This document shows positions 13,654 to 64,000 of a stretch of 64,000 bases of DNA, piece after piece. A model generated the notes under the pieces. The model searched no databases. It had not been told where the DNA came from and saw nothing but the letters and a program-made list of their open reading frames with translations. How positions within the stretch are numbered: position 1 is the first letter of the stretch; each line of letters starts with the position of its first letter. Source of the stretch: Myxococcota bacterium (lineage in GTDB: Bacteria; Myxococcota; JACRCW01); NCBI GenBank assembly GCA_040752415.1, contig JBFMGU010000013.1, positions 8,374-72,373 of the forward strand, given 5' to 3'. A program made the position numbers and the translations under genes.

Positions 13654-14357
13654 AGGTGGCCGGCAATGGTCAGCCCCGGGGCGGCGCTGTCACGACGACG
13701 GAAAGCGGCAGGCGATACGACCGGACCGACCGATTCAGCCCGCTGGAGAACCGGCCTGCAATGTAGGGGCTGCCCGTTGCCGGCAACGCGTGAACGGTGA
13801 AGGTGGCCGGCAATGGTCAGCCCCGGGCGGCGCTGCCATGACGACAGGAATTGGTCTGCAACGTCGGTCCAGCGGTTCATGACGACGGAGAACCGGCCTG
13901 CAATGTAGGGGCTGCCCGTTGCCGGCAACGCGTGAACGGTGAAGGTGGCCGGCAATGGTCAGCCCCGGGCGGCGCTGTCACGACGACGGAAAACCGGTCC
14001 ACGACGACCGAGCCGGCCCCCACGCGTCCGGAGCTCACGGTTCACCCAGAACGCGCTCCGGCAGCCCGAACGATCCGGGCCTGTTCTCCGCTGACGAGAG
14101 CTAACTGCACCAGCGAATTGCGGGCCATTTTCCGTCGTCATGAACCGCTGGGCCCGGGGCTGACCATTGCCGGCCACCTTCACCGTTCACGCGTTACCGG
14201 CACGGGCGGCCCCTACATTGCAGGCCGGTTCTCCAGCGCGCTGAATCGGTCGGTCAGGTCGCGTGGCGTGTCGTTTTGCGTCGTCACCAGGGCGGCGAGG
14301 GCCCGCCGCACCCCAGGCCGTGGCCCGCTCACGACGTCTGCAAGCCCGAGTGGCAAC
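13654..14357. repeat. Composite REP/BIME-like cluster of direct and inverted ~100-bp repeats
   Basis: 13745-13845 repeats at 13887-13987; 13724-13828 is inverted at 14152-14255; AGGTGGCCGGCAATGGTCAGCCCCGGG occurs four times; 14287-14357 matches the reverse complement of 63725-63794. Confidence 0.9.
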
Positions 14358-14521
14358 CTCTTCGGACGCCCCCCCTTGCATCCTGTTCGTCTCATGGCGG
14401 CGCGACGCGCTTGCCCGCACGGTTGGGCTTCGCTCCAGCCGAAACCCGCGCAGCATCTGCGGCCTCCCGCCGCCATCGCGCAAAGAGGTTGCGTTTGCCG
14501 GGCCGCTCCCGGGGTGTGCCG

Positions 14522-23432: not shown

Positions 23433-25142
23433 TCAACGAACCCCGAAATACACCTCCCAGTGTGGCGCTCCCGGCCCTCCAAGCACCGCGAACTCCCCGT
23501 CGGCGTACAGCGCGGTGACGACGAGATCCAGGAGCCCGTCGCCGTTGAGGTCCACGGTGGTCCAATCCTCGTCTCCCGGGTCGCTGGTCATGCCTGACAG
23601 GCGCACAAAGCCCTGCCCATTCCAGCCCCCGGCGGGGACGGGCCACGTGGTGGCAGTGGTGGCGAAGCCCGACTCAGTCCCCAGATGGACCTTCCAGTGC
23701 GGAGCGCTTCCGTGGCCCAGAACAGCGAATGCACCGTCCTGGTAGACCGCCGTGACAACGAGGTCCAAGACGCCGTCGCGGTTGAGGTCCACCGTCGTCC
23801 AATCCTCGTCTCCCGGGTCGTAGGCCTGGCCCGCGAGCCGGACGAATCCCTCCTGGCTCCAGCCTCCTGCGGGAACGGGCCAGGTGGTGGCGCCGGCGGC
23901 GAAGCCCGTGCCGGTCCCCAGGTACACCTTCCAGTGCGGTGAGATTCCCTGTCCCAGCACTGCGAACTCTCCGTCGGCGAACCGCGCGGTGACGACGAGA
24001 TCCAGGAGCCCGTCGCCGTTGAGGTCCACGGTGGTCCAATCCTCGTCTCCCGGGTCGCTGGTCATGCCTGACGGGCGCACAAAGCCCTGCCCATTCCAGC
24101 CCCCGGCGGGGACGGGCCACGTGGTGGCAGTGGTGGTGAAGCCCGACTCAGTCCCCAGATAGACCTTCCAGTGCGGAGCGCTTCCGTGGCCCAGAACAGC
24201 GAATGCACCGTCCTGGTAGACCGCCGTGACAACGAGGTCCAAGACGCCGTCGCCGTTGAGGTCCACCGTCGTCCAATCCTCGTCTCCCGGGTCGTAGGCC
24301 TGGCCCGCGAGCCGGACGAATCCCTCCTGGCTCCAGCCTCCTGCGGGAACGGGCCAGGTGGTGGCGCCGGTGGCGAAGCCCGTGCCGGTCCCCAGGTACA
24401 CCTTCCAGTGCGGTGAGATTCCCTGTCCCAGCACTGCGAACTCTCCGTCGGCGTACCGCGCGGTGACGACGAGATCCAGGAGCCCGTCGCCGTTGAGGTC
24501 CACGGTGGTCCAATCCTCGTCTCCCGGGTCGCTGGTCATGCCTGACAGGCGCACAAAGCCCTGCCCATTCCAGCCGCCCGCGGGGACGGGCCACGTGGTG
24601 GCATTGGTGGTGAAGCCCGACTCAGTCCCCAGATGGACCTTCCAGTGCGGAGCGCTTCCGTGGCCCAGAACAGCGAATGCACCGTCCTGGTAGACCGCCG
24701 TGACAACGAGATCCAGGACACCGTCGCCACTGAGGTCCACCGTCGTCCAATCCTCGTCTCCCGGGTCGTAGGCCTGGCCCGAGAGCCGGACGAATCCCTC
24801 CTGGCTCCAGCCCCCCATGGGCACGCCCCAGGACTCCGCGACCGCTGCGAATCCGGTTGCGCCACCCGAGGTGGAGGATTGACCCGAGCTGGAAACCGCA
24901 GCCGAGCTTGACGACGTGGCAGTTGTCGTGGAGGACGCGCTGCTCGCCGTGGAACTGGATGCCGCGCTGGACGTGCCGCTGGCTGACCCTCCCGTGGAAG
25001 TGGAAGCTCCGCTGGATGACGACGACGTTGCCGACGTGGAGCTGGACTGCCCCTGGGATGCCTCTGAAGCTCCGCCGCCGGACGTACATCCCGCCGCCAC
25101 GAGAAGCGCCAACGTCGCGCGTGGGAAGTGTTGAGTCATCAT
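23433..25142 (-). CDS. Lipoprotein with Ser/Thr linker and six 79-aa FG-GAP/VCBS-like repeats
   Basis: LALLVAAGC lipobox; six WTTVDL[NS][GR]DG[VL]LDLVVT units in ABABAB order. Confidence 0.88.
   Translation of the reverse strand: MMTQHFPRATLALLVAAGCTSGGGASEASQGQSSSTSATSSSSSGASTSTGGSASGTSSAASSSTASSASSTTTATSSSSAAVSSSGQSSTSGGATGFAAVAESWGVPMGGWSQEGFVRLSGQAYDPGDEDWTTVDLSGDGVLDLVVTAVYQDGAFAVLGHGSAPHWKVHLGTESGFTTNATTWPVPAGGWNGQGFVRLSGMTSDPGDEDWTTVDLNGDGLLDLVVTARYADGEFAVLGQGISPHWKVYLGTGTGFATGATTWPVPAGGWSQEGFVRLAGQAYDPGDEDWTTVDLNGDGVLDLVVTAVYQDGAFAVLGHGSAPHWKVYLGTESGFTTTATTWPVPAGGWNGQGFVRPSGMTSDPGDEDWTTVDLNGDGLLDLVVTARFADGEFAVLGQGISPHWKVYLGTGTGFAAGATTWPVPAGGWSQEGFVRLAGQAYDPGDEDWTTVDLNRDGVLDLVVTAVYQDGAFAVLGHGSAPHWKVHLGTESGFATTATTWPVPAGGWNGQGFVRLSGMTSDPGDEDWTTVDLNGDGLLDLVVTALYADGEFAVLGGPGAPHWEVYFGVR
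23436..24830. repeat. Near-identical intragenic tandem repeat, 474-bp period, three copies (each two diverged 237-bp halves)
   Basis: The GTCCCCAGA marker recurs at 23677, 24151 and 24625. Confidence 0.92.
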
Positions 25143-41924: not shown

Positions 41925-44900
41925 TCACCGACGTCGTCGCCGCGTTCCCGCGAGCAGCACCGCCCCCAACAACGCGAGCAGCGGCGTCGGCCCGTTGCCC
42001 GCCTCCGCACAACGACACAATCCCGGCGTGCTTCCCGTGCCCGGTTCCTCGGGCGGAGTGCTCACCCCCGCGTCGGGTGACGTCTTGCCAGCATCGACGG
42101 TGACAGGCTCCCCCGCGTCGGGAGCGCCAGCGTCGGGCGTGACCGCGGCATCTGGTGTCACCGCGGCATCCGGTGTCACCGCGCCGTCCGGTGTCACCGC
42201 GGCATCCGGGGTCCCGGCATCCGCACCCGCATCCAGGATCTCACCCGCATCCTCCGGGCCAGCATCGAGCGCCACCGCCGCGTCCGTCGTCACGCCGGCG
42301 TCCTCCGCCACACCCGCGTCGGCGTCGGGCGCGTCGCACGCGTCACCCACGCCGTCGTCATCCGTGTCCGCCTGGTCGGCATTGGAGACGGTGCGACAGT
42401 TGTCGGCGCCATCGTCGTGGCCATCCGCATCGGAGTCGCGCTGGCGGAAGTCCGGCGTGCCGTTGTCATCGGTGTCCGCGGCGGGGGTGCCCAGGTCCGC
42501 GTCGCCGGCCTCATCCGCGTCGGACACACCGTCGCCGTCGGAGTCATCGTCCAGCGCGTCGATGGTGCTGTCGTTGTCCACGTTGCTGGGTGCCTGCGCG
42601 TCCACCAGCTCCACGAGGTCGTCCAGGCCGTCTCCGTCGGAGTCCGGGCTGCCGGCGTTGAGGGCCAGCTCGCCTTCGCGCGTGTCCGCCACGCCGTCGC
42701 GGTCCAGGTCGCGGAACGTCACCACCGCGGTGAGGACGCGGTGCGTCTCCTCGGTCCCGTCGGTGGCGTAGATGTCCAGCGTCACGGTGCCCGCCTGCGC
42801 GTAGGTGGGCCGCCACGAGAACAGGCCGATGTTGGGATCCACGACCGCACCCGCCGGGAGGTTCGTGCCGCCGTAGGTCACCGCGGTCCCGTCGGGATCC
42901 GTGGCCGCCACCAGGAATGAGAGCAGGTTTCCTTCGGACGCCGTCAACGTCACGTCGTCGGCGGGGGTGGGCTGAACCAGCACGGGCGGGTCATTGACGG
43001 GCGTGATGGTGACCTCCACCGTGGCCAGTCCGGAGTCCAGCTGACCGTCCCGCGCACGGAAAGTGAACACGTCCCGCCCGTTGAAGTTCGGCGCCGGGGT
43101 GTAGACCAGGTTCGGCCCCGTACCCGAGAGCGTGCCGTTCACCGGCGTCGTCACCACCTGGAAGGTGAGTGTGCTGCCCTCCGGGTCGGTGGCCAGCAGC
43201 GTGATGTTCAGCGACGTGTCCTCCGGCGTGCTGAATGACGCGTCAAACGCCACCGGCGCCGCATTCCCCTGCGCCACGGTCAGCTGCACCCGCGCGGCGG
43301 CGGACACCGCCACGCCGTCGCTGACGGTGAAGGTGAACTCGTCGGGGCCCAGGTAGCCCTGGTCCGGCGTGTACGCCAGGTTGGGAGGCGTGCCGCTGAG
43401 CTGTCCGTGGGTGGGAACCGTCAGCACCGCGTACTGCAGCGCATCCCCGTCCACGTCGCTGCCGGTCAGCGTGATACCCACGGTGGCATCCAACTGCGTG
43501 GTCACGGACCGACCGTCCGCCACCGGAGCGTCGTTCACCGACTGCACATCCAGCGTGATCGTTCCCGGGGCCGAGGTCGAGACACCGTCGTCGACCGTGA
43601 ACGTGAAGGTCTCCGTGCCGTGGAAGTCCGCCTCCGGCGTGTAGACCAGGTTGGGCGGGTCACCCGACAACGTTCCGCGCTCGGGAGGGTCCAGCACCGT
43701 GAACGTCAGCGGGTCGCCCTCGGCGTCAAAGCCCGTGAGCGTCACCGGAACGGCAGAATCCTCGTCCAGGGTGATGGTCTGCTCCTCCGCCACCGGCGCA
43801 TCCAGGCTCCCCACCACGTTGATGCTCACAGTGACCACGGCGGAATCGGCGCTGCCGTCGTTGGCCCGGAACGTGAAGCTGTCCACGCCGTTGTAGTTGA
43901 CGTCGGGCGTGTAGGTCAGGTCGGGTGCCGTGCCGGAGAGCGTCCCGTTCGTGGGGGCACCCACCACCGCGTAGCTGAGCGGGTCGCCGTCCACGTCGGT
44001 GGCCGAGAGCGTGATGCTCCGCGGCGTGTCCTCCACCACCGTCACGCTCTGGCCGTTGGCCACCGGGGCGTCGTTCACCGACGTCACGGTGATGCTCACG
44101 TTGGCCACCGCGGACGAGGCCGCGCCATCCGTGACGTGGAAGGTGAACGAGTCGGACCCGTTGAAGTTGCTTCCTGGCGAGTAGGTCAGGTTGGGCGCGG
44201 CGCCCGTCAGCGTCCCGTTGGCCGGCGGGCTGTCCAGCACGAAGGTCACCGTGTCCCCGTCGACGTCGCTCCCTGCCAGCACGACGTTGACCGGCTGGTC
44301 CTCGGGGGTGGCGGCACTGGCGTCACTTGCCAGCGGCGCGTCGTTGACCCCGGTCACGGTGACCGAGACCAAGGCGGTGGCCGTGCCCCCAGCCCCGTCG
44401 GCAACCACGTAGGTGAAGGAGTCCGAGCCCTGGAAGTCCAGGTCCGGCACGTAGGTCACCGTGCCATCCGCGTTCACCAGCACCACGCCGTTGCTGGCAC
44501 CCGTGGCGTCCACGACCTGGAGCGGGTCCCCGTCGGCATCACCGTCGTTGTCCAGCACGCTCACGTCGGTGGAGGAGTCCTCGGCCAGGGTCGCGGAGTC
44601 GCTGAGCGCCACCGGCGCGTCGTTCCGCGCGGTCACCGTCACCGAGACGGACCCGGTGGCCGTGCCTCCCTGCCCGTCGGAGACGGTGTAGCTGAAGGTG
44701 TCCGTGCCGTTGAAGTTGCTGGCGGGGGCGTAGTGGATGGTGCCGTTGGCGTTGACGGACGCCGTGCCGTTGCCGGGCGTTCCCAGCCCGGACACCGTCA
44801 GCGTGTCGGCGTCGGCGTCGGTGTCATTGTCCGTCGCCGGGATGTCCACTGCAACGTCCTCGTTGGTGGTCGCCACGTCGGCGTTGGCCACCGGGATGTC

Positions 44901-47900
44901 GTTCACGGGCGTGATGGTGACGTTGACCGTGGCGGTGGCGGTTCCGCCGTTGCCGTCGGAGATGGTGTAGGTGAAGGAATCGGAGCCGTTGGCGTTGGCA
45001 TTTGGCGCGTAACGCACCGTGTTGTCCGCGTTGATCGACGCGATGCCCCGGGCGCCATTGGTCACCGCCGTGACCGTCAAGGTGTCGCCATCAACATCGG
45101 AGTCGTTGGCCTTCACGTTGAGGCTGGCCGCCGCGTCCTCACTGGTGGTCACCGAGTCACCGTTGGCCACCGGGTTGTCATTGACCGCGGTGATGGTGAC
45201 GCCCACCGTGGCGGTGGCGGTCCCTCCGTTTCCATCGGAGATGGTGTACGTGAAGCTGTCGGTGCCGTTCTGGTTGGAATCCGGCGTATAGCGCACGGTG
45301 TTGTCGGCATTGATGGACACCGCACCCCTGGTCCCGTTGGTCACCGCCGTCACCGTCAACGCGTCCCCATCCACGTCGCTGTCATTGGCCTTGACGTTGA
45401 GGTCGGCGAACGCGTCCTCGTTGGTCGTCAGCGAATCGTCCAGGGCCACGGGAGCGTCGTTGACCGCGCTGACCGTGACGGACACGGTACCGGTCGCGGT
45501 GCCACCGTTGCCGTCCGAGATGGAGTAGGTGAAGGAATCCGTGCCGTTGAAGTGCAGTGCCGGCTGGTAGCGTATGGTCTGGTCGGCATTGAGCGTCAGC
45601 GCGCCATTCCCCGCGGCGCCAACCGCCGTCACGGTCAACACGTCGCCTTCCACGTCGCTGTCGTTGGCCCGCACATCCACGTTGACGGCGGCGTCCTCGT
45701 TGGTCGTGGCGCTGTCCGCCGTCGCCACCGGGGCGTCGTTGACCGCGGTGATGGTCACCGTCACGGACGCGGAGCTCGTCGCGTTGAAGATGTCGCGGAT
45801 GGTGTAGGTGAATGAGTCGGTTCCGGAGAAGTTGGGGTTGGGCGTGTAACGCACGGTGTTGCCTGCGTTGATGGACACCGTGCCGTTGCCGGCGGCCCCC
45901 ACGGCAATCACCGTCAACGCATCGTTCTCCGGGTCGGTATCGTTGGCCTTCACATCCACGTCGACGGCCACGTCCTCACTGGTCATCGCGGTGTCGTTGG
46001 CGGCCACCGGGGGGTCATTGCCCAAAGCAACCACCACGTTGACGACGCCCGTGGCCGCACCGCCGTTGCCGTCGGAGACCGTGTAGGTGAATGAGTCGGT
46101 CCCGTTGAAGTCCAGCGCCGGCGCGTAGCGCACCGTCTGGTCCGCATTCAGCGTCACCGTACCATTGGACGCCGTGCCCACGGCGGTCACCGTCAACGCG
46201 TCGCCATCAACATCCAGGTCGTTGGCCTTGACGTCCACGGTGACCGGGGTGTCCTCCGAGGTCCCCACCGAGTCCGTGCCGGCCACCGGGTCGTCATTGA
46301 CGGGGGTGATGGTGACGTTGACCGTGGCGGTTGCGGTCCCGCCGCTCCCGTCGGAGATCGTGTAAGTGAAAGTGTCGGCACCATTGGCGTTCGCATCCGG
46401 CGTGTACCGCACCGTGTTGTCCGCGTTGATCGCCACCGTGCCCCTGGCGCCGTTGCTCACCGCGGTCACCGTCAGCGGGTTGCCCTCCACGTCAGTGTCG
46501 TTGGCCTTCACGTCGATGTTGCCGGCCGCGTCCTCACTGGTGGTCAAGGCGTCGGCGTTGGCCACCGGGCTGTCGTTGATCGCGGTGATGGTCACGTTCA
46601 CCGTGGCGGTGGCCGTACCCCCGTTCCCGTCGGAGATGGTGTACGTGAAGCTGTCCGTGCCGCTCTCGTTGGGATTCGGCAGGTAGCGCACCGTGTTGTC
46701 GGCGTTGATGGATGCCGTGCCCTTGGCGCCGTTGGTCACCGTGGTGACGGTCAGCGCGCCGCCGTCCCCATCCGTGTCGTTGGCCTTCACGTCGATGTTC
46801 GCGGCGGTATCCTCGCTGGTCGTCAGCGTGTCGTTGCTCGCCGTGGGATTGTCATTGATCGGGTTGACGGTGACATTCACGGTGCCTGTGGCAGTGCCGC
46901 CGTTCCCGTCGGAGATGGTGTAGGTGAACGAGTCGGTGCCGCCGAAATTGGCCGCCGGCGTGAAGCTCACCGTGTTGCCGCCGTTGATGGAGACCGTACC
47001 GTTTGCTCCCTGGGTGACTGCGGTCACGGTGAGGGTGTCCCCGTCCGGGTCACTGTCGTTGGCCTTCACCGCAATGGTGATGCTGGTGTCCTCGTCGAGG
47101 CTGGCGGTGTCGTCGTTGGCCACGGGGGAGTCGTTGACCGGCGTGATGTTCACGTTCACCACACCCGTGGCCGTCCCGCCGTTACCGTCCGAGACGGTGT
47201 AGAAGAAGGAGTCCGAACCGTTGGCATTGGGGTTGGGCGCATAGCGGATGGTGTGGTCCGCGTTGACGGTGGTTGTGCCAAGCGTGCCGTCGGTCGCGGC
47301 AATCACGGAGAGCGAGTCGCCATCGACGTCGGTGTCATTGGCCCGCACGTCAATGACGAGGTCCGCATCCTCCGCGGTGGTGAGGTCATCCGGCGTTGCC
47401 ACCGGCGTGTCGTTCACGGCGCTGATGGTCACTGTCACCGTGCCAAACGAAGTTCCACCGTTCCCATCCGACACCGCGTAACTGAAGGTGTCCGTGCCAT
47501 TCGCGTTGGCGTTGGGCGTGTAACGTACCGTGTTGTCCGCATTGATGCTGGTGGTGCCCTTGGCGCCATCGGTGCTCACGGTGACCGTCAGCGTGTCGCC
47601 ATCCGCGTCGGTGTCGTTCGCCCGGACGTCCACGTCGACCGTGGTGTCCTCGCTGGTTGCTGGATTGTCGGCATTCGCAACCGGGTTGTCGTTGATCGCG
47701 GTGATGCTGACGTTGACGGAACCGGTGGCGGTACCGCCGTTCCCGTCGGAGATGGTGTACGTGAAGCTGTCCGTGCCGTTGGCATTCGCACTGGGCGTGT
47801 ACCGCACGGTGTTGTCTCCGTTGATCGACGCCGTGCCCCTGGCGCCATTGGTCACCGCGATGACCGTCAGCGCATCCCCGTCGGCGTCCGTGTCATTGGC

Positions 47901-50900
47901 CTTCACAACGACGTTGGCGGCCGTGTCCTCATCCGTTGTCAACGCGTCGACGTTTGCCACCGGGATGTCGTTGACGGCAGTGATGGTGACGTTCACCGTG
48001 CCGGTGGCGGTTCCGCCGTTTCCGTCGGAGATGGTGTAGGTGAATGAGTCCGCGCCGTTCTGGTTGAGGTTTGGCGTGTAGCGCACCGTGTTGTCGGCGT
48101 TGATCGATGCCGTACCCCTGGCGCCGTTGGTCACCGCAAGGACGGTCAGCGTGTCGCCATCGACGTCGGAATCGTTGGTCTTGACCTCGACGTTGGCCGG
48201 CGTGTCTTCGCTGGTTGTCAGGCTGTCGGGATTGGCTACTGGATTGTCGTTGACGGCGTTGATGGTGACGGTCGCCGTGCCGGTGGCGGTGCCGCCGTTT
48301 CCGTCGGAGATGGTGTAGGTGAATGAGTCGGCGCCGTTCTGGTTGAGGTTTGGCGTGTAGCGCACCGTGTTGTCGGCGTTGATGGACGCCGTGCCCCTGG
48401 CGCCATTGGTCACCGCGACGACGGTCAGCGTGTCGCCATCGACGTCGGAATCATTGGTCTTGACATTGATGTCGGCTGGCGTGTCCTCGCTGGTGGTCAG
48501 CGGGTCGGTGATGGCCACCGGGTTGTCGTTGACGGCGGTGATGGTGACATTCACCGTGCCGGTGGCGGTGCCGCCATTCCCGTCGGAGATGGTGTAGGTG
48601 AATGAGTCGGCGCCGTTCTGGTTGAGGTTCGGCGTGTAGCGCACCGTGTTGTCGGCGTTGATGGACGCCGTGCCCTTGGCGCCGTTGGTCACCGCGACGA
48701 CGGTCAGCGTGTCGCCATCGACATCGGAATCGTTGGTCTTGACCTCGACGTTGGCCGGCGTGTCCTCGCTGGTTGTCAGGGTGTCGGGATTGGCTACCGG
48801 ATTGTCGTTGACGGCGTTGATGGTGATGTTCACCGTACCGGTGGCGGTGCCGCCGTTCCCGTCGGAGATGGTGTAGGTGAATGAGTCGGCGCCGTTCTGG
48901 TTGAGGTTCGGCGTGTAGCGCACCGTGTTGTCGGCATTGATGGACGTGGTGCCCTTGGCGCCGTTGGTCACCGCGGTCACCGTCAGGGTGTCCCCGTCCG
49001 GGTCGGAGTCATTGGCCTTCACCGCAACGTTCACCGCGACGTCCTCACTGGTCGTGGCGGCGTCGGGGTTGGCCACCGGCGCTCCCTGCAGCGTCACGAC
49101 CGCCGATCCCGGCAGCGCGTTGCTCTGGACCCACAGCAGGTACTTGCCCACGGGCCAGCTCGGCAGCGTCACCTGCGCCTGGGTGGCGGAGAACTGCGTC
49201 GCGGTGAGGAATGCCAGCCGTTGCCCGCCCAGATCCTCGATGGCGGCAATCGGGACGTTGGAGGGTGAATCCGCCGTGTTGCTGGAGCTGGCGCTGGAGA
49301 CACCCCGGAATCCCGACCCCGTCACGGTGATGCTTGCCCCAGCCGTTGCCACCGAGGGACCCGTCACCACCGGCCGCCAGGCGTCCTGCGCACCCACGAC
49401 GCTGAGCAACTCCGCCGTCGCCGTGTACCCACCGAACCCGTTGGCTCCTCCCGCCGTCAGCACCTTGCCCGACGGAAGGAGTGTGGTGGTGGGGCCTTCG
49501 TGCTGGCTGCCGAGTGTTGCGCTGGTGGAGAAGGTGGCGGTGCCGGGGTCGTAGATCTCGGACTCCGTGGGGCTGATGCCGCGGCCCCCCGTCACCAACA
49601 CCAGCCCCGACGGGAGCCGCGTCAGCGTGTGCGCGCGCCGCGCGTATACCAACGAGCCCGTGGTGCTCCAGGTGTTGGTGGCGGGGTCATACAGCTCCGC
49701 CGACGACAGGTAGCTGCCGTTGTCGCCTCCCGCCACCAGGACCTTGCCCGACGTCAGGAGCGTCGCGGCAAAGTACTGGCGCAACGTCGACATGAACGCT
49801 GTCGTGCTCCAGGTTTCCGTTGCGGGGTCGTACACGTACCCCACGAGCGACCCGACGACGAGCACGCGGTCGGTCAGCAACAGGACCGCAACGCCGCCCC
49901 ACACCGCACCGGGCATGGCACTGGTGGAGGTCCACGTCTCGGTCGACGGGTCGTAGAGCTCCGCGGAAGCGAGGGAGCTGCCATTGTACCCCCCCGCCAC
50001 CAACACCTTGCCCGACGGGAGCAACGTCGCGGTGTGGTCGGAGCGGGCGGTGGCCAGTGAAGCGGTGAAGCTCCAGTTGCCCGTCGCGGGATCATAGATC
50101 TCCGCCGACGAGAGGTAGGCCGACCCGTTGTAGCCGCCCACCACCAGGACCTTGCCCGAGCGCAGCAACGTGGCGGTATGGCTGCGACGCGCGTTGCCCA
50201 GGGAGTTGGCGACACTCCACGCGCCGGTGGCGGGATCATAGAGCTCCGCGGACGCCAGGTAGCTGGAGTTGTAACCCCCCGCCACCAGGACCTTCCCCGA
50301 CGGCAGCAGCGTGGCGGTGTGCATGCCGCGCGCGCTGGTCAGGGAAGCGGTGGCGTTCCAGGTCCGGCCCCCCGGGTCGTACATGGTCGTCGTGGCGACG
50401 AAGCTCGTCCCGTCGTAGCCCCCCGTGATGAACGTCTTGCCGTTGGGGAGCAGCGTGGCGGTGTGACCCTCGCGCGCGCTGGCCATGGGCGTGACACCGC
50501 TCCAGGTGCCCGTGGTTGGGTCGTAGGACTCCACGGAGGCCAGGGTCGTCCCGCCCAGCCCGCCCACGACGAGCACGCTGCCGGAGGGCTGCAGCGTGGC
50601 GCGGTGTCGTCGCCGGGCTGTGGCCATGGAGCCGGTGGAGCTCCATCCGCCCGTACCGGGGTCGTACAATTCCGCGAAGGCAAGGGCGCTCCCGTTGAAG
50701 CCTCCCGCCACCAGCACCTTGCCCGACGGCAGCAGCGTGGCGGTGTGCAACTCCCGGTCCCGGGACATCGCGCCCGTCGAGCTCCAGCTCCCCGACGACG
50801 GGTCATACAGCTCGGCCGAGTACAGGTAGCTGCCGTTGTATCCGCCGACGACCAACACCTTGCTGTTGCCGAGCAACGTGGCGGTGTGGTTGATGCGCGA

Positions 50901-61793: not shown

Positions 61794-62975
61794 TCACTCC
61801 GCCCGGTCCGCGATCTTGACGGGCGCGCCCGGGGAGAGCCCGGTCTGCCCGGTGACCACGACCATGTCCCTGTCGGTGAGCCCGCTGCGCACGGCCACGT
61901 AGGGACCCTCGGTGGGCTCCACCTGCGCGCGCACCGCCTCCGCCTTGCCGTCGCGCACCACGTAGACCACGGCACCCTGCGCGTCGGTGATCACGGCGTC
62001 CTGCGCCACGGACAACACGCCCTCGCGCCGGCCGATCTCGATGCTGCCGCGCGCGAACATGTTGGGCAGCAATCGGCCGTGCGGATTGGCGACGAGGATC
62101 TCCACCGCGGCGCGGCGCGTCTGCGCATCCAGGGACGGCGCGCGCACGGAGACCTTCCCCTCGAACACCTGGTCCGGCAGCTCGTCCACGACGATGCGCG
62201 CCTGCTGCCCCACGCTGAGCAGGTGGTACTCGGCGGCGGTGACGGAGCCCTCCAGCTTCATCTCCGCCACCTCCTGCACCTTGAAGAGCGGCGCGCCGGG
62301 AACGGCCATGCTGCCCAGCTGCACGTTGCGCGCGACGACGATGCCGTCGATGGGGCTGGTGATGCGGCTGTTGTCCAACGCAACCTGCGTCAATCCCGCC
62401 GCGGCGCGTGCCAGCTCGGCCTGCGCCTCCGCGGTCCGGACGCCGGCCTGCGCCGCCTTCAGTCCCATTTCCACGCGCTCAAGCTCGGCGGCGGGCAGCG
62501 CCCCCTCGACGGCGAGGCTCTTCATGCGGTCCAACTGGCGCTGCGCGGTCTCCGCGTTCACGCGCGCCTGCTCAACGGCGGCCTCCGCCACCTGGACCTG
62601 CGCGGCGGTTTGTCGGACCTGCCATTCCACCTCGCGGTGCTCCACCACGGCGAGGACCTGGCCCGTCCGGACACGGTCCCCGACCTTGACCTTCACGCTC
62701 TCCAGACGGCCGCCCATGCGCGCGGTGACATCCACCTCGCTGGTGGACCGCATGGTGCCGGTGATGCTCACCCGGTCGACGATCTCGCGACGCTCCGGCG
62801 GGGCCACGGCCACGGTGGGAATGGGCGCCGCCTGTGGGATGGACTGCTCCGCGCGAACCTTCTTGGCCTTGTCGATGCGGACGGCAAACACCGCTCCGAG
62901 CGCGCCGACGAGAACCAGCGCAATGAGGATGCCCTTGCCGCTGCTGCTGGCGGGCGGAGGCGGGAGGTCCGTCAT
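61794..62975 (-). CDS. RND efflux membrane fusion protein
   Basis: N-terminal TM; VKVGDRV..GQVL, ITSPIDGIV and LLPNMFA. Confidence 0.92.
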   Translation of the reverse strand: MTDLPPPPASSSGKGILIALVLVGALGAVFAVRIDKAKKVRAEQSIPQAAPIPTVAVAPPERREIVDRVSITGTMRSTSEVDVTARMGGRLESVKVKVGDRVRTGQVLAVVEHREVEWQVRQTAAQVQVAEAAVEQARVNAETAQRQLDRMKSLAVEGALPAAELERVEMGLKAAQAGVRTAEAQAELARAAAGLTQVALDNSRITSPIDGIVVARNVQLGSMAVPGAPLFKVQEVAEMKLEGSVTAAEYHLLSVGQQARIVVDELPDQVFEGKVSVRAPSLDAQTRRAAVEILVANPHGRLLPNMFARGSIEIGRREGVLSVAQDAVITDAQGAVVYVVRDGKAEAVRAQVEPTEGPYVAVRSGLTDRDMVVVTGQTGLSPGAPVKIADRAE

Positions 62976-63619
62976 GAGGTGCTCCTGGGAAGCGAAGGGA
63001 TGGGCTCCGTCGTGGGCGGGCCGGAAAGACCGTGGAGGAGGAGCTGCACAATGGTGCGTGCGCTGGCGGCCAGCGGCGCGGAGGACTGCTCGATTGCCCA
63101 GCGGATGAACGACATGTGCAGCGCGCTGAGGATGAACAGCGCGGCGGTCTCCACCGGGCAGCCGCGCAGGTCGCCCGGAGCGGCGTTGGCCTTCACCCAC
63201 GACGTCATGCGCGCCGCGAAGCTCAGGAAGCCCGCCCGCGCGCGCTCGTGTCGGGTGCGCGAAACCGCCATGGTCTGCGAAGCCACCAGGAAGACCGCCA
63301 GCTCCCCACGCCGCCGGTCAGCGAGGGAAAGCTGGGTCCGCACCAGGTGCTCCAGGCGTTGTCGGAATGCGGTTCCCGACGGGGCCGGCACTTCAAAGGT
63401 GGCCAGCATCTCGTGCGCGAGGTGCTCGAGCAGGCCGTCCACGATCTCCTGCTTGCCCGTGAAATAGGAATAGAGCGTGGCCGCGCCATAACCAGCCTCG
63501 GCGGCAATGTCCTGCACGGTGGTGGCGTCGAGCCCCTTGCTGGCAAACGCCCGCGCCGCCGCCTCGAGGATCTCGATCCGGTGACGGGCCTGCTTGCGCG
63601 CTCGACGGTCAGGATTCAT
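62972..63619 (-). CDS. TetR/AcrR family regulator heading the efflux operon
   Basis: ILEAAARAFASKG..ATTVQDIAAEAG....TLYSYF.GK; ATGA overlap with the MFP gene. Confidence 0.92.
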   Translation of the reverse strand: MNPDRRARKQARHRIEILEAAARAFASKGLDATTVQDIAAEAGYGAATLYSYFTGKQEIVDGLLEHLAHEMLATFEVPAPSGTAFRQRLEHLVRTQLSLADRRRGELAVFLVASQTMAVSRTRHERARAGFLSFAARMTSWVKANAAPGDLRGCPVETAALFILSALHMSFIRWAIEQSSAPLAASARTIVQLLLHGLSGPPTTEPIPSLPRSTS

Positions 63620-63654
63620 CCGCAGAACACCTGTTCTCCATTCCTAACGAGTGG

Positions 63655-63685
63655 TGACTTTGCCGAATGCATATTCGGAAGTCAA
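63655..63685 (-). promoter_or_regulatory. Sigma-70-like promoter containing a palindromic operator
   Basis: Minus strand TTGACT-17 nt-CAAAGT; the spacer holds CCGAAT-ATGC-ATTCGG; ~35 nt upstream of tetR. Confidence 0.7.
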
Positions 63686-63695
63686 GGACGGTGGT

Positions 63696-64000
63696 TCACG
63701 GATCCGGATCAGGGTCCAGAACAAGATGCCCAGCGGGATTGCGGACGTGTGAGCGGGCCACGACCTGGAGTGCGGCGGGCCCTCGCCGCTTTGGACAAGT
63801 GCTCCAAAAACCGTCCTGGCTGTCGGCCGAGGCGGGTCCCGGGTCCCTTGTCGTCGTTGGCCTGGCTTGGGCAACACCCTGGCCTGGGTCGTTGTTGTTG
63901 GGAGGCCGCGGCGGCGTCACATTGGGCACCTTGAACACGACCGTGACTCCTTCCGAGTCGACTTCGACCCGCGACACCAGGGTCTGGATCACAAGGCGTT
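63696..64000 (-). mobile_element. 3' end of a probable large serine recombinase gene (5' part outside window)
   Basis: Open frame from the window edge: RLVIQTLVSRVEVDSEGVTVVFKVP, a Pro-rich linker, then FWSTC. This resembles large serine recombinase C-termini; the catalytic domain is not visible. Confidence 0.55.
63725..63794. repeat. Dispersed REP-like element
   Basis: By-eye alignment gives 60/71 matches to the reverse complement of 14287-14357; core GGAGTGCGGCGGGCCCTCGCCGCTTTGG. Confidence 0.85.

Follow-up and report, generated by a model that had tools for sequence, protein, structure and literature searches.

A gene that runs without a stop codon out of one kind of DNA and into another raises the question of what it belongs to and how it came to lie where it does. 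This situation is found at the right edge of the stretch analysed here, a window of 64,000 nucleotides that comprises positions 8374-72373 of contig C35 (JBFMGU010000013.1) in the assembly GCA_040752415.1 of a Myxococcota bacterium, and whose base 64000 is at the same time the end of the contig. A preliminary description had quoted the residues of an open reading frame entering from this edge, and had proposed that it belongs to a serine-recombinase element with a multicopy REP hairpin as its attachment site. We find the frame on the minus strand with exactly the residues quoted (Table 1), and its GC3 is 0.75 versus 0.65 and 0.54 in the other two frames. With a corrected junction the proposed interpretation is supported by our analysis, and we consider it likely that the frame is part of an IS-like element of about 2 kb and one gene, whose large serine recombinase inserts the joined ends of the element into a REP-like hairpin at the dinucleotide GA.

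The genome bin holds 11.0 Mb in 520 contigs, with 4.3% contamination. Ten of the contig ends, that of the window included, share the sequence that leads inward from the hairpin and represent right ends of the element, all of them located where a contig breaks off. Ten other contig ends are left ends, in which a repeat arm, an interior of about 113 nt and the first half of a second hairpin are followed by a common sequence. Inside the element identity is 100% in 45 of 45 pairs (first 70 nt on the right, first 90 nt on the left), and a single synonymous difference at about 63873 distinguishes the window copy from the six other copies that reach this point. The element is thus present in at least 10 identical copies in this genome. 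The right flanks of the ten occupied sites show a mean pairwise identity of 0.75 (range 0.56-0.94) and the left flanks one of 0.65, which is the ordinary divergence between copies of the repeat. All ten right and all ten left ends lie in the hairpin that had been suggested as the attachment site, and neither the base of insertion nor the orientation varies among them. The left flanks stop with ...CCAGGGCGGCGA and the right flanks go on with GGGCCCGCCGCAC..., and when joined these form the 25-mer of the empty site, CCAGGGCGGCGAGGGCCCGCCGCAC, of which the genome contains 170 exact copies. The far flank hence continues the repeat, as the preliminary description had anticipated, and by consensus across loci the flanks rejoin to an intact target, as is the case in conservative insertion. 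Within this assembly no locus was seen in both the empty and the occupied state, and the predicted circle junction had no match; the left-junction sequence occurs 10 times in the genome.

The left end of the element begins with GCCGCTTTGGACA and the right end finishes with its exact reverse complement, so that both are bounded by perfect 13-nt inverted repeats. The terminal 12-mer has 21 occurrences, corresponding to 10 left ends, 10 right ends and one repeat variant, and GA/TC adjoins the element at 20 of 20 junctions (10 left, 10 right). The sequence common to both junctions and the empty site is GCGGCGA(G), 7-8 nt that occupy 63782-63789 in the window. A serine recombinase requires only 2 nt, and a core of this length would also be compatible with a tyrosine recombinase or with a short duplication of the target. 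In the right end on contig C389, located in a rare variant of the hairpin, the core reads GAC instead of GAG, but all 10 left junctions read GAG. Any duplication therefore ends at GA, and the next base is that of the element on the left and that of the target on the right. Inverted repeats are thus arranged around a central 2-nt GA that is also present in the target, where 2 nt represent a minimum in view of the shared core of 7-8 nt. We had also considered a 4-nt target duplication (CGAG) with 12-nt inverted repeats, of the IS1380 type, and rejected it because duplication of the fourth base is contradicted by the C389 variant; the possibility that the element is of the IS110 type or a group II intron was discarded because neither the end sequences nor the frame fit.

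The junction had originally been placed at 63794. The true boundary is at 63783-63785, about 10 nt further to the left, and the difference arises because the last 5 nt of the element together with GA (63783-63789) copy the target hairpin. The small inverted repeat TTTGGA-N7-TCCAAA that had been described as spanning the junction does exist; it lies wholly inside the element, and a 6-nt inverted repeat of this kind is not significant by itself.

Table 1. Features of the occupied and the unoccupied repeat in the window (window coordinates).
Feature	Position	Strand	Basis or detail
Unoccupied repeat arm, opposite orientation	14287..14367		Hairpin 14292-14309, GA 14297-14298
Open frame with recombinase-like C-terminus and proline-rich tail	63696..63998	-	Open from the contig end, stop at 63696-63698
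Target-derived flank, outer part of one repeat arm	63716..63782		Identity among occupied sites, blastn
Complete hairpin GCGGCG-N6-CGCCGC at the right junction	63772..63789		Last 5 nt supplied by the element
Putative crossover dinucleotide	63783..63784		TC on the + strand, GA on the coding strand of the element; C389 variant and spacing in relatives
Right end of the element, continuing past the contig end	63785..64000		Identity across 10 copies
Element-side half-site, right end	63785..63807		63785-63797 (GCCGCTTTGGACA) and the first 13 nt of the left end are perfect inverted repeats
Small inverted repeat TTTGGA-N7-TCCAAA	63790..63808		Internal to the right half-site of the element
42 residues (RLVIQTLVSRVEVDSEGVTVVFKVP...) aligned with the extreme C-terminus of large serine recombinases	63873..63998	-	phmmer, blastp, profile

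The target itself is a member of an abundant interspersed repeat, as evidenced by 226 blastn matches in the genome to positions 63716-63797 of the window. Its core is the hairpin GCGGCG-AGGGCC-CGCCGC, present in 191 exact copies. For a 20-nt version of this core we counted 179 copies in the genome versus 0 for a reversed control, such that chance does not account for the repeat, and 0 in 20 related genomes, among them the only other genome of the family (92% completeness). Most copies of the repeat are inverted doublets with arms of 46 nt and 82 nt around an interior of about 100 nt, reminiscent of a REPIN. The family thus combines a short GC-rich hairpin with many copies, mostly in inverted doublets, as REP and REPIN sequences do. 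Within the window, the repeat search paired 63749-63794 with 14287-14332 (46 nt, 91% complementary), and blastn extended the match to 77 nt at 84% identity with an E-value of 7e-15 against the whole genome. The 70-bp repeat of the preliminary description is therefore real and indeed inverted, and is more precisely one arm of a REPIN-like inverted doublet; its second copy, some 49 kb away at 14287-14367, carries an intact hairpin and no element sequence, in agreement with its designation as an empty site.

REP sequences of this kind were further examined for an association with RAYT-like genes. The bin contains two Y1_Tnp genes (RAYT/IS200-like) at C24:5840-6292 and C12:3-440. The former is flanked by a different palindrome, TTGCCTGCCAATCTCATTGGCAGG, and not by the REP-like repeat, and no REP-like copy was found in the 2.5 kb read next to the latter, which lies at the start of its contig with the upstream flank cut off. 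No RAYT flanked by the same repeat was thus found among these two genes. As the readable Y1_Tnp flanks carry another palindrome and the upstream flank on C12 is cut off, the term REP-like is used here descriptively only. The genome holds at least two unrelated REP-type systems.

Several further observations were made on the repeats. The empty REP arm in the window is directly adjoined, at 13694-14285, by nested inverted repeats of another family, with arms of 47-84 nt that are 85-98% complementary, and the same nested-repeat sequence is found beside REP arms on contigs C342 and C516. In one repeat copy on contig C61 (around 15721, minus strand) the 13-nt end of the element, GCCGCTTTGGACA, replaces the usual GCCGCCCTGGCCA and is followed by normal repeat interior; this variant might have arisen by conversion or represent a scar, or it may hint at an origin of the element ends from the repeat. 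When the 250-nt tips of the contigs were clustered across the genome, 60 families were obtained, 12 of them with 7-28 members, and the biggest, with 28 members, is the REP-like doublet itself. Multicopy elements that interrupt the assembly are therefore abundant in the bin.

The identity of the enzyme has to be read from the part of the gene that is assembled. In a phmmer search of 1.84 billion representative sequences the fragment returned a single match, P0001, with an E-value of 3.5e-4 and 43% identity. P0001 is a C-terminal fragment itself, with five full-length homologues at E-values from 1e-21 to 2e-39, and all five carry the Resolvase, Recombinase (PF07508) and Zn_ribbon_recom (PF13408) domains. 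Direct blastp comparison of the fragment to P0002 and P0004 gave 46-50% identity over 39-42 residues, with pairwise E-values of 8e-11 and 2e-11. The aligned segment is the last conserved one of these proteins (R.LIRTLVSRIEIDE.GATI.YRIP), and in both cases a proline-rich tail follows. A profile built from eight relatives, with the window left out, was run against 184,813 six-frame segments of the genome and retrieved only this frame, at an E-value of 2.1e-7, with the next match at 9.5. The C-terminus of the frame is hence homologous to that of the family members. Note that Pfam and NCBIfam gave no match in the 100-residue fragment, a word-indexed protein search retrieved no longer relatives of it, and the profile of C-termini had chance matches only among solved structures (best annexin XII, E 0.73), with the motif not being unique to recombinases. 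As a point against the assignment, about 42 residues and one match at an E-value of 3.5e-4 are the basis of the link to recombinases. Judging from this C-terminal homology, the enzyme of the element would be a large serine recombinase, with its catalytic domain predicted for the unassembled interior.

Searches for this interior were made by several routes. K-mers taken from the two contig tips had no second exact match in the assembly, the fragment retrieved only itself when compared with the genome by tblastn, and no catalytic or DNA-binding domain of a recombinase is found in the assembled part of the element. At the DNA level, a search of 40 relatives gave only a chance match of 29 nt. The one locus found in the metagenome scan, L019, was rejected as a 15-residue match inside an unrelated helicase-like frame, and the sole other locus with a Recombinase domain in the assembly, on contig C59, as a different protein in a different element. 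The latter (C59:24640-26044) is another large serine recombinase, a 434-residue open frame cut by the contig end that belongs to a contig-end family of four members, and it may represent a second multicopy recombinase element.

The recombinase-like frame has no stop inside the element in 10 of 10 copies and reads through the repeat, as had been noted for the window. It continues for 28 to more than 89 codons into the flanks and differs from copy to copy. The suggestion that the last codons are borrowed from the target is correct in this sense, but the borrowing is incidental; as the codons supplied by the flank vary in every copy, the read-through tail is probably without function. At the left end, the first 110 nt of which are available on contigs C79, C51 and C214, the recombinase frame would, if the ends were joined, be open across the junction and through all 110 nt. 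The relatives described below likewise have a largely open frame between left end and start codon. This distance is about 300-380 nt in the relatives, which explains why no recombinase N-terminus is seen within the known 110 nt of the left end.

Related elements provide the view of complete units. In another Myxococcota genome, locus L023 encodes a recombinase of 612 residues with all three domains, situated between 22-nt inverted repeats that are 2.0 kb apart; the unit is present there as a single copy, and the recombinase frame there likewise continues across the right repeat, where LQHCPTS stands in place of the WSTCPKR of the window element. A pattern scan of species-representative genomes yielded four more loci, L039, L040, L041 and L042. 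The two copies L039 and L040 lie in one contig of 2.7 Mb and share their flanks, such that they may go back to one insertion event. In two separate metagenome bins, at L041 (1600-3700) and L042 (1550-3700), a gene for a group II intron reverse transcriptase is interrupted at the same point by the recombinase unit, with positions 1-127 of RVT_1 upstream and positions 121-205 plus the maturase domain downstream; a mobile element here serves another as landing site. Resolvase (PF00239) was detected in P0002, L023, L041 and L042, and Recombinase (PF07508) and the zinc ribbon (PF13408) in L023, L041 and L042. The only domains in the relatives are Resolvase, Recombinase and Zn-ribbon, all relatives with readable ends are about 2 kb long with a single gene, and comparison of ORF ends with right-end positions showed that the frame is free of stops within the element in every relative. 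The relatives reach the threshold of no NCBIfam model. By homology to them, the window element would also be about 2 kb in size, with one gene.

All these elements have in common an end motif that reads TCGACAA at the left and TTGTCGA at the right end. The dinucleotide located 16 nt outside this motif is the same at both junctions, being GA in the window element, AA in L039 and L040, CT in L042 and TT in L023. The exception is L041, where the junction dinucleotides are GC and GT, one base apart, and the rule accordingly holds in four of the five related loci (L039, L040, L042, L023). Note that it was derived from the window element and L042, so that the independent tests are L039/L040 and L023. 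The layout is that predicted for a recombinase site about 50 nt long that has its 2-nt crossover at the center.

Units that were considered as close relatives in the Myxococcaceae genomes G395 and G367 were rejected, as the fragment has no match in their C-termini and their ends are located within other repeated DNA. In the complete genome G395 of about 13.8 Mb, this unit of 2108 nt with a recombinase of about 600 residues occurs three times (L025, L035, L038) at 94-99% identity, and by eye the flanks of the G395 and G367 (L024) units look like pieces of an IS91-type transposase gene.

In the mechanism that we favor, the recombinase encoded up to the right end of the element, and reading through it, would also be the enzyme that moves it. 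The element would pass through a circular intermediate, in which the joined ends form two perfect 13-nt inverted repeats around a central GA, and insertion would be a conservative site-specific recombination with a putative exact cut at this GA. The hairpin of the lineage-specific REP/REPIN-like repeat would serve as a multicopy attachment site, with the crossover at its own GA. As the genome offers some 170-180 equivalent sites, a site-specific integrase would here act like a transposase.

The same site-specific insertion would be seen if the contig ended in a larger island, a prophage or an integrative element with cargo that carries its serine integrase gene at the right end. The phage-like phiRv1 reportedly uses REP13E12 repeats as attachment sites. 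The interior of the window element is absent from the assembly, and large serine recombinases usually serve phages and large elements, according to PMC10083194 and PMC4058570. Ten copies that are identical over every assembled base would however be unusual for large elements, the relatives with readable ends are uniformly small single-gene units, and the other Recombinase-domain match in the assembly belongs to a different element; we regard a larger element as unlikely. Slightly less likely still is a different enzyme in the unassembled interior, with the serine-recombinase-like gene as a passenger or a resolvase. A DDE transposase might have left 13-nt terminal inverted repeats and a duplication of 2-3 nt, and perfect terminal inverted repeats with a short direct repeat formally match what a DDE insertion sequence leaves; a tyrosine recombinase might have acted through a 7-nt overlap, with the shared core of 7-8 nt fitting such enzymes, and REP-specific insertion is documented for IS110/IS1111 elements. 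Against these stand the recombinase-like nature of the very frame that adjoins the element end, the recombinase as the only gene between the ends in relatives, the junction dinucleotide at a fixed 16 nt from conserved end motifs while the targets differ, and an orientation that is the same in 10 of 10 insertions.

An assembly artefact, in which the shared contig ends are chimeric or collapsed repeat sequence, has to be weighed in a bin as fragmented as this one (520 contigs, 4.3% contamination), in which 12 or more repeat families with at least 7 members each are found at contig ends. Yet it would have to account for twenty independent contig ends with two sharp, complementary junctions at one base of a hairpin and with unrelated outer flanks, and the breaking of contigs at a multicopy element is what an assembler is expected to do. 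We consider this explanation highly improbable.

A small serine-recombinase element inserting into REP-like hairpins has counterparts among known systems in some of its aspects. Elements of the Tn5397/Tn4451 type range from 6 to 21 kb, with Tn4451 at the low end. Tn5397, at 21 kb, forms the upper end, and every target of its large serine recombinase TndX contains GA at the center (PMC4430133). A class of transposing or multi-targeting serine recombinases is recognised (PMC10083194, PMC4058570). With Tn5397 (TndX), Tn4451 (TnpX) and the multi-targeting recombinases described by Durrant et al. 2022 the window element would share a large serine recombinase as its transposase and many sites per genome. 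The Tn5397/Tn4451 elements, however, carry cargo on their 6-21 kb and are found in Firmicutes, whereas here we apparently observe a bare single-gene unit of about 2 kb in Myxococcota, with perfect 13-nt end repeats and a strict, sequence-defined multicopy target. Most proteins of the multi-targeting clade contain DUF4368, as described in PMC10083194, and unlike in that clade this domain was not found by Pfam in the relatives of the element.

Orientation-specific insertion into REP sequences, with a repeat family that provides many equivalent landing sites, is a feature shared with insertion sequences of the IS110/IS1111 group, for which REP-specific and orientation-specific insertion has been documented (e.g. 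IS621). IS1397 and ISKpn1 of the IS3 family also insert into REP sequences. These elements employ RNA-guided DEDD recombinases or DDE transposases, whereas the gene adjoining the junction here is serine-recombinase-like, and the joined ends of the window element would form a palindromic site of the protein-recognised type, in contrast to REP-targeting IS elements. Neither a DEDD recombinase nor a guide RNA was encountered: the frame that reaches the element end is serine-recombinase-like and the domains of its relatives are likewise, the interior of the element itself being outside the assembly.

Bibb and Hatfull are said to have described in 2002 that the phiRv1 serine integrase of Mycobacterium tuberculosis uses REP13E12 repeats, with several genomic sites being usable. 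phiRv1 is prophage-like, about 10 kb in size and present as a single copy per genome, and REP13E12 is a repeat of 1.4 kb in 7 copies. These repeats hold a putative prophage attachment site (PMC13061034). The likeness thus consists in a serine integrase with an attachment site in a repeated element; the differences are the roughly 10 copies of a small element and a target that is an 18-nt hairpin with about 180 copies. IS607 is an insertion sequence moved by a serine recombinase, TnpA, through a circle with a 2-nt overlap (PMC4058570), and the window element would resemble it in being mobilized by an enzyme of this type. IS607 TnpA is described with the reverse order of domains, an absence of terminal inverted repeats and little target specificity, whereas the window element possesses terminal inverted repeats and a strict target, and its relatives score 28-30 bits against the IS607 model of NCBIfam with its cut-off of 110.

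Serine recombinases that transpose, REP-specific insertion and a serine integrase acting on a repeat family are thus already known, and it is the targeting of a REP hairpin by a serine-recombinase element that appears to be undescribed. In the literature, as covered by listings, abstracts and passages of the main texts, no serine-recombinase element targeting REP hairpins or group II intron genes was found. As a tentative proposal, which may well turn out to be wrong, we suggest that the window element is the first to be recognised of a separate family of minimal insertion sequences with a single gene, for a large serine recombinase, which lacks a stop of its own and reads out of the right end. 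Multicopy DNA would serve such elements as attachment sites, in the form of REP hairpins for the window element and of a conserved position within group II intron reverse-transcriptase genes for relatives. The related elements would then represent members that were retargeted to different repeated sequences, and if the family is real, the natural pair of element site and target site of each member could be taken directly from genome sequences.

Serine integrases are prized for one-direction DNA insertion that does not depend on host factors, and normally have one site each. Here such an integrase appears to have been turned into a multicopy insertion sequence by adopting the genome's own repeat family as a landing pad, and this bears on how site-specific recombinases become transposases, on the exploitation of REP-type repeats by other mobile DNA, and on where fragmented assemblies break. 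As target and element site are both readable from the junctions, a complete copy would provide a ready pair of recombinase and site to test.

In the neighborhood of the insertion (62972-63716), the minus strand at 62972-63619 carries a gene that by eye resembles a TetR-family regulator and is followed by an efflux membrane-fusion-like gene. The frame of the element is directed at the TetR-like gene and has its stop 77 nt ahead of the gene start, and transcription reading out of the element could affect the TetR-like and efflux-like genes. Elsewhere in the window there are two coding tandem arrays, one at 44298-49136 with 17 copies of a 279-nt unit that are 61-83% identical and one at 23479-24830 with 5-6 copies of a 237-nt unit at 75-97% identity, and both probably encode repeated extracellular domains.
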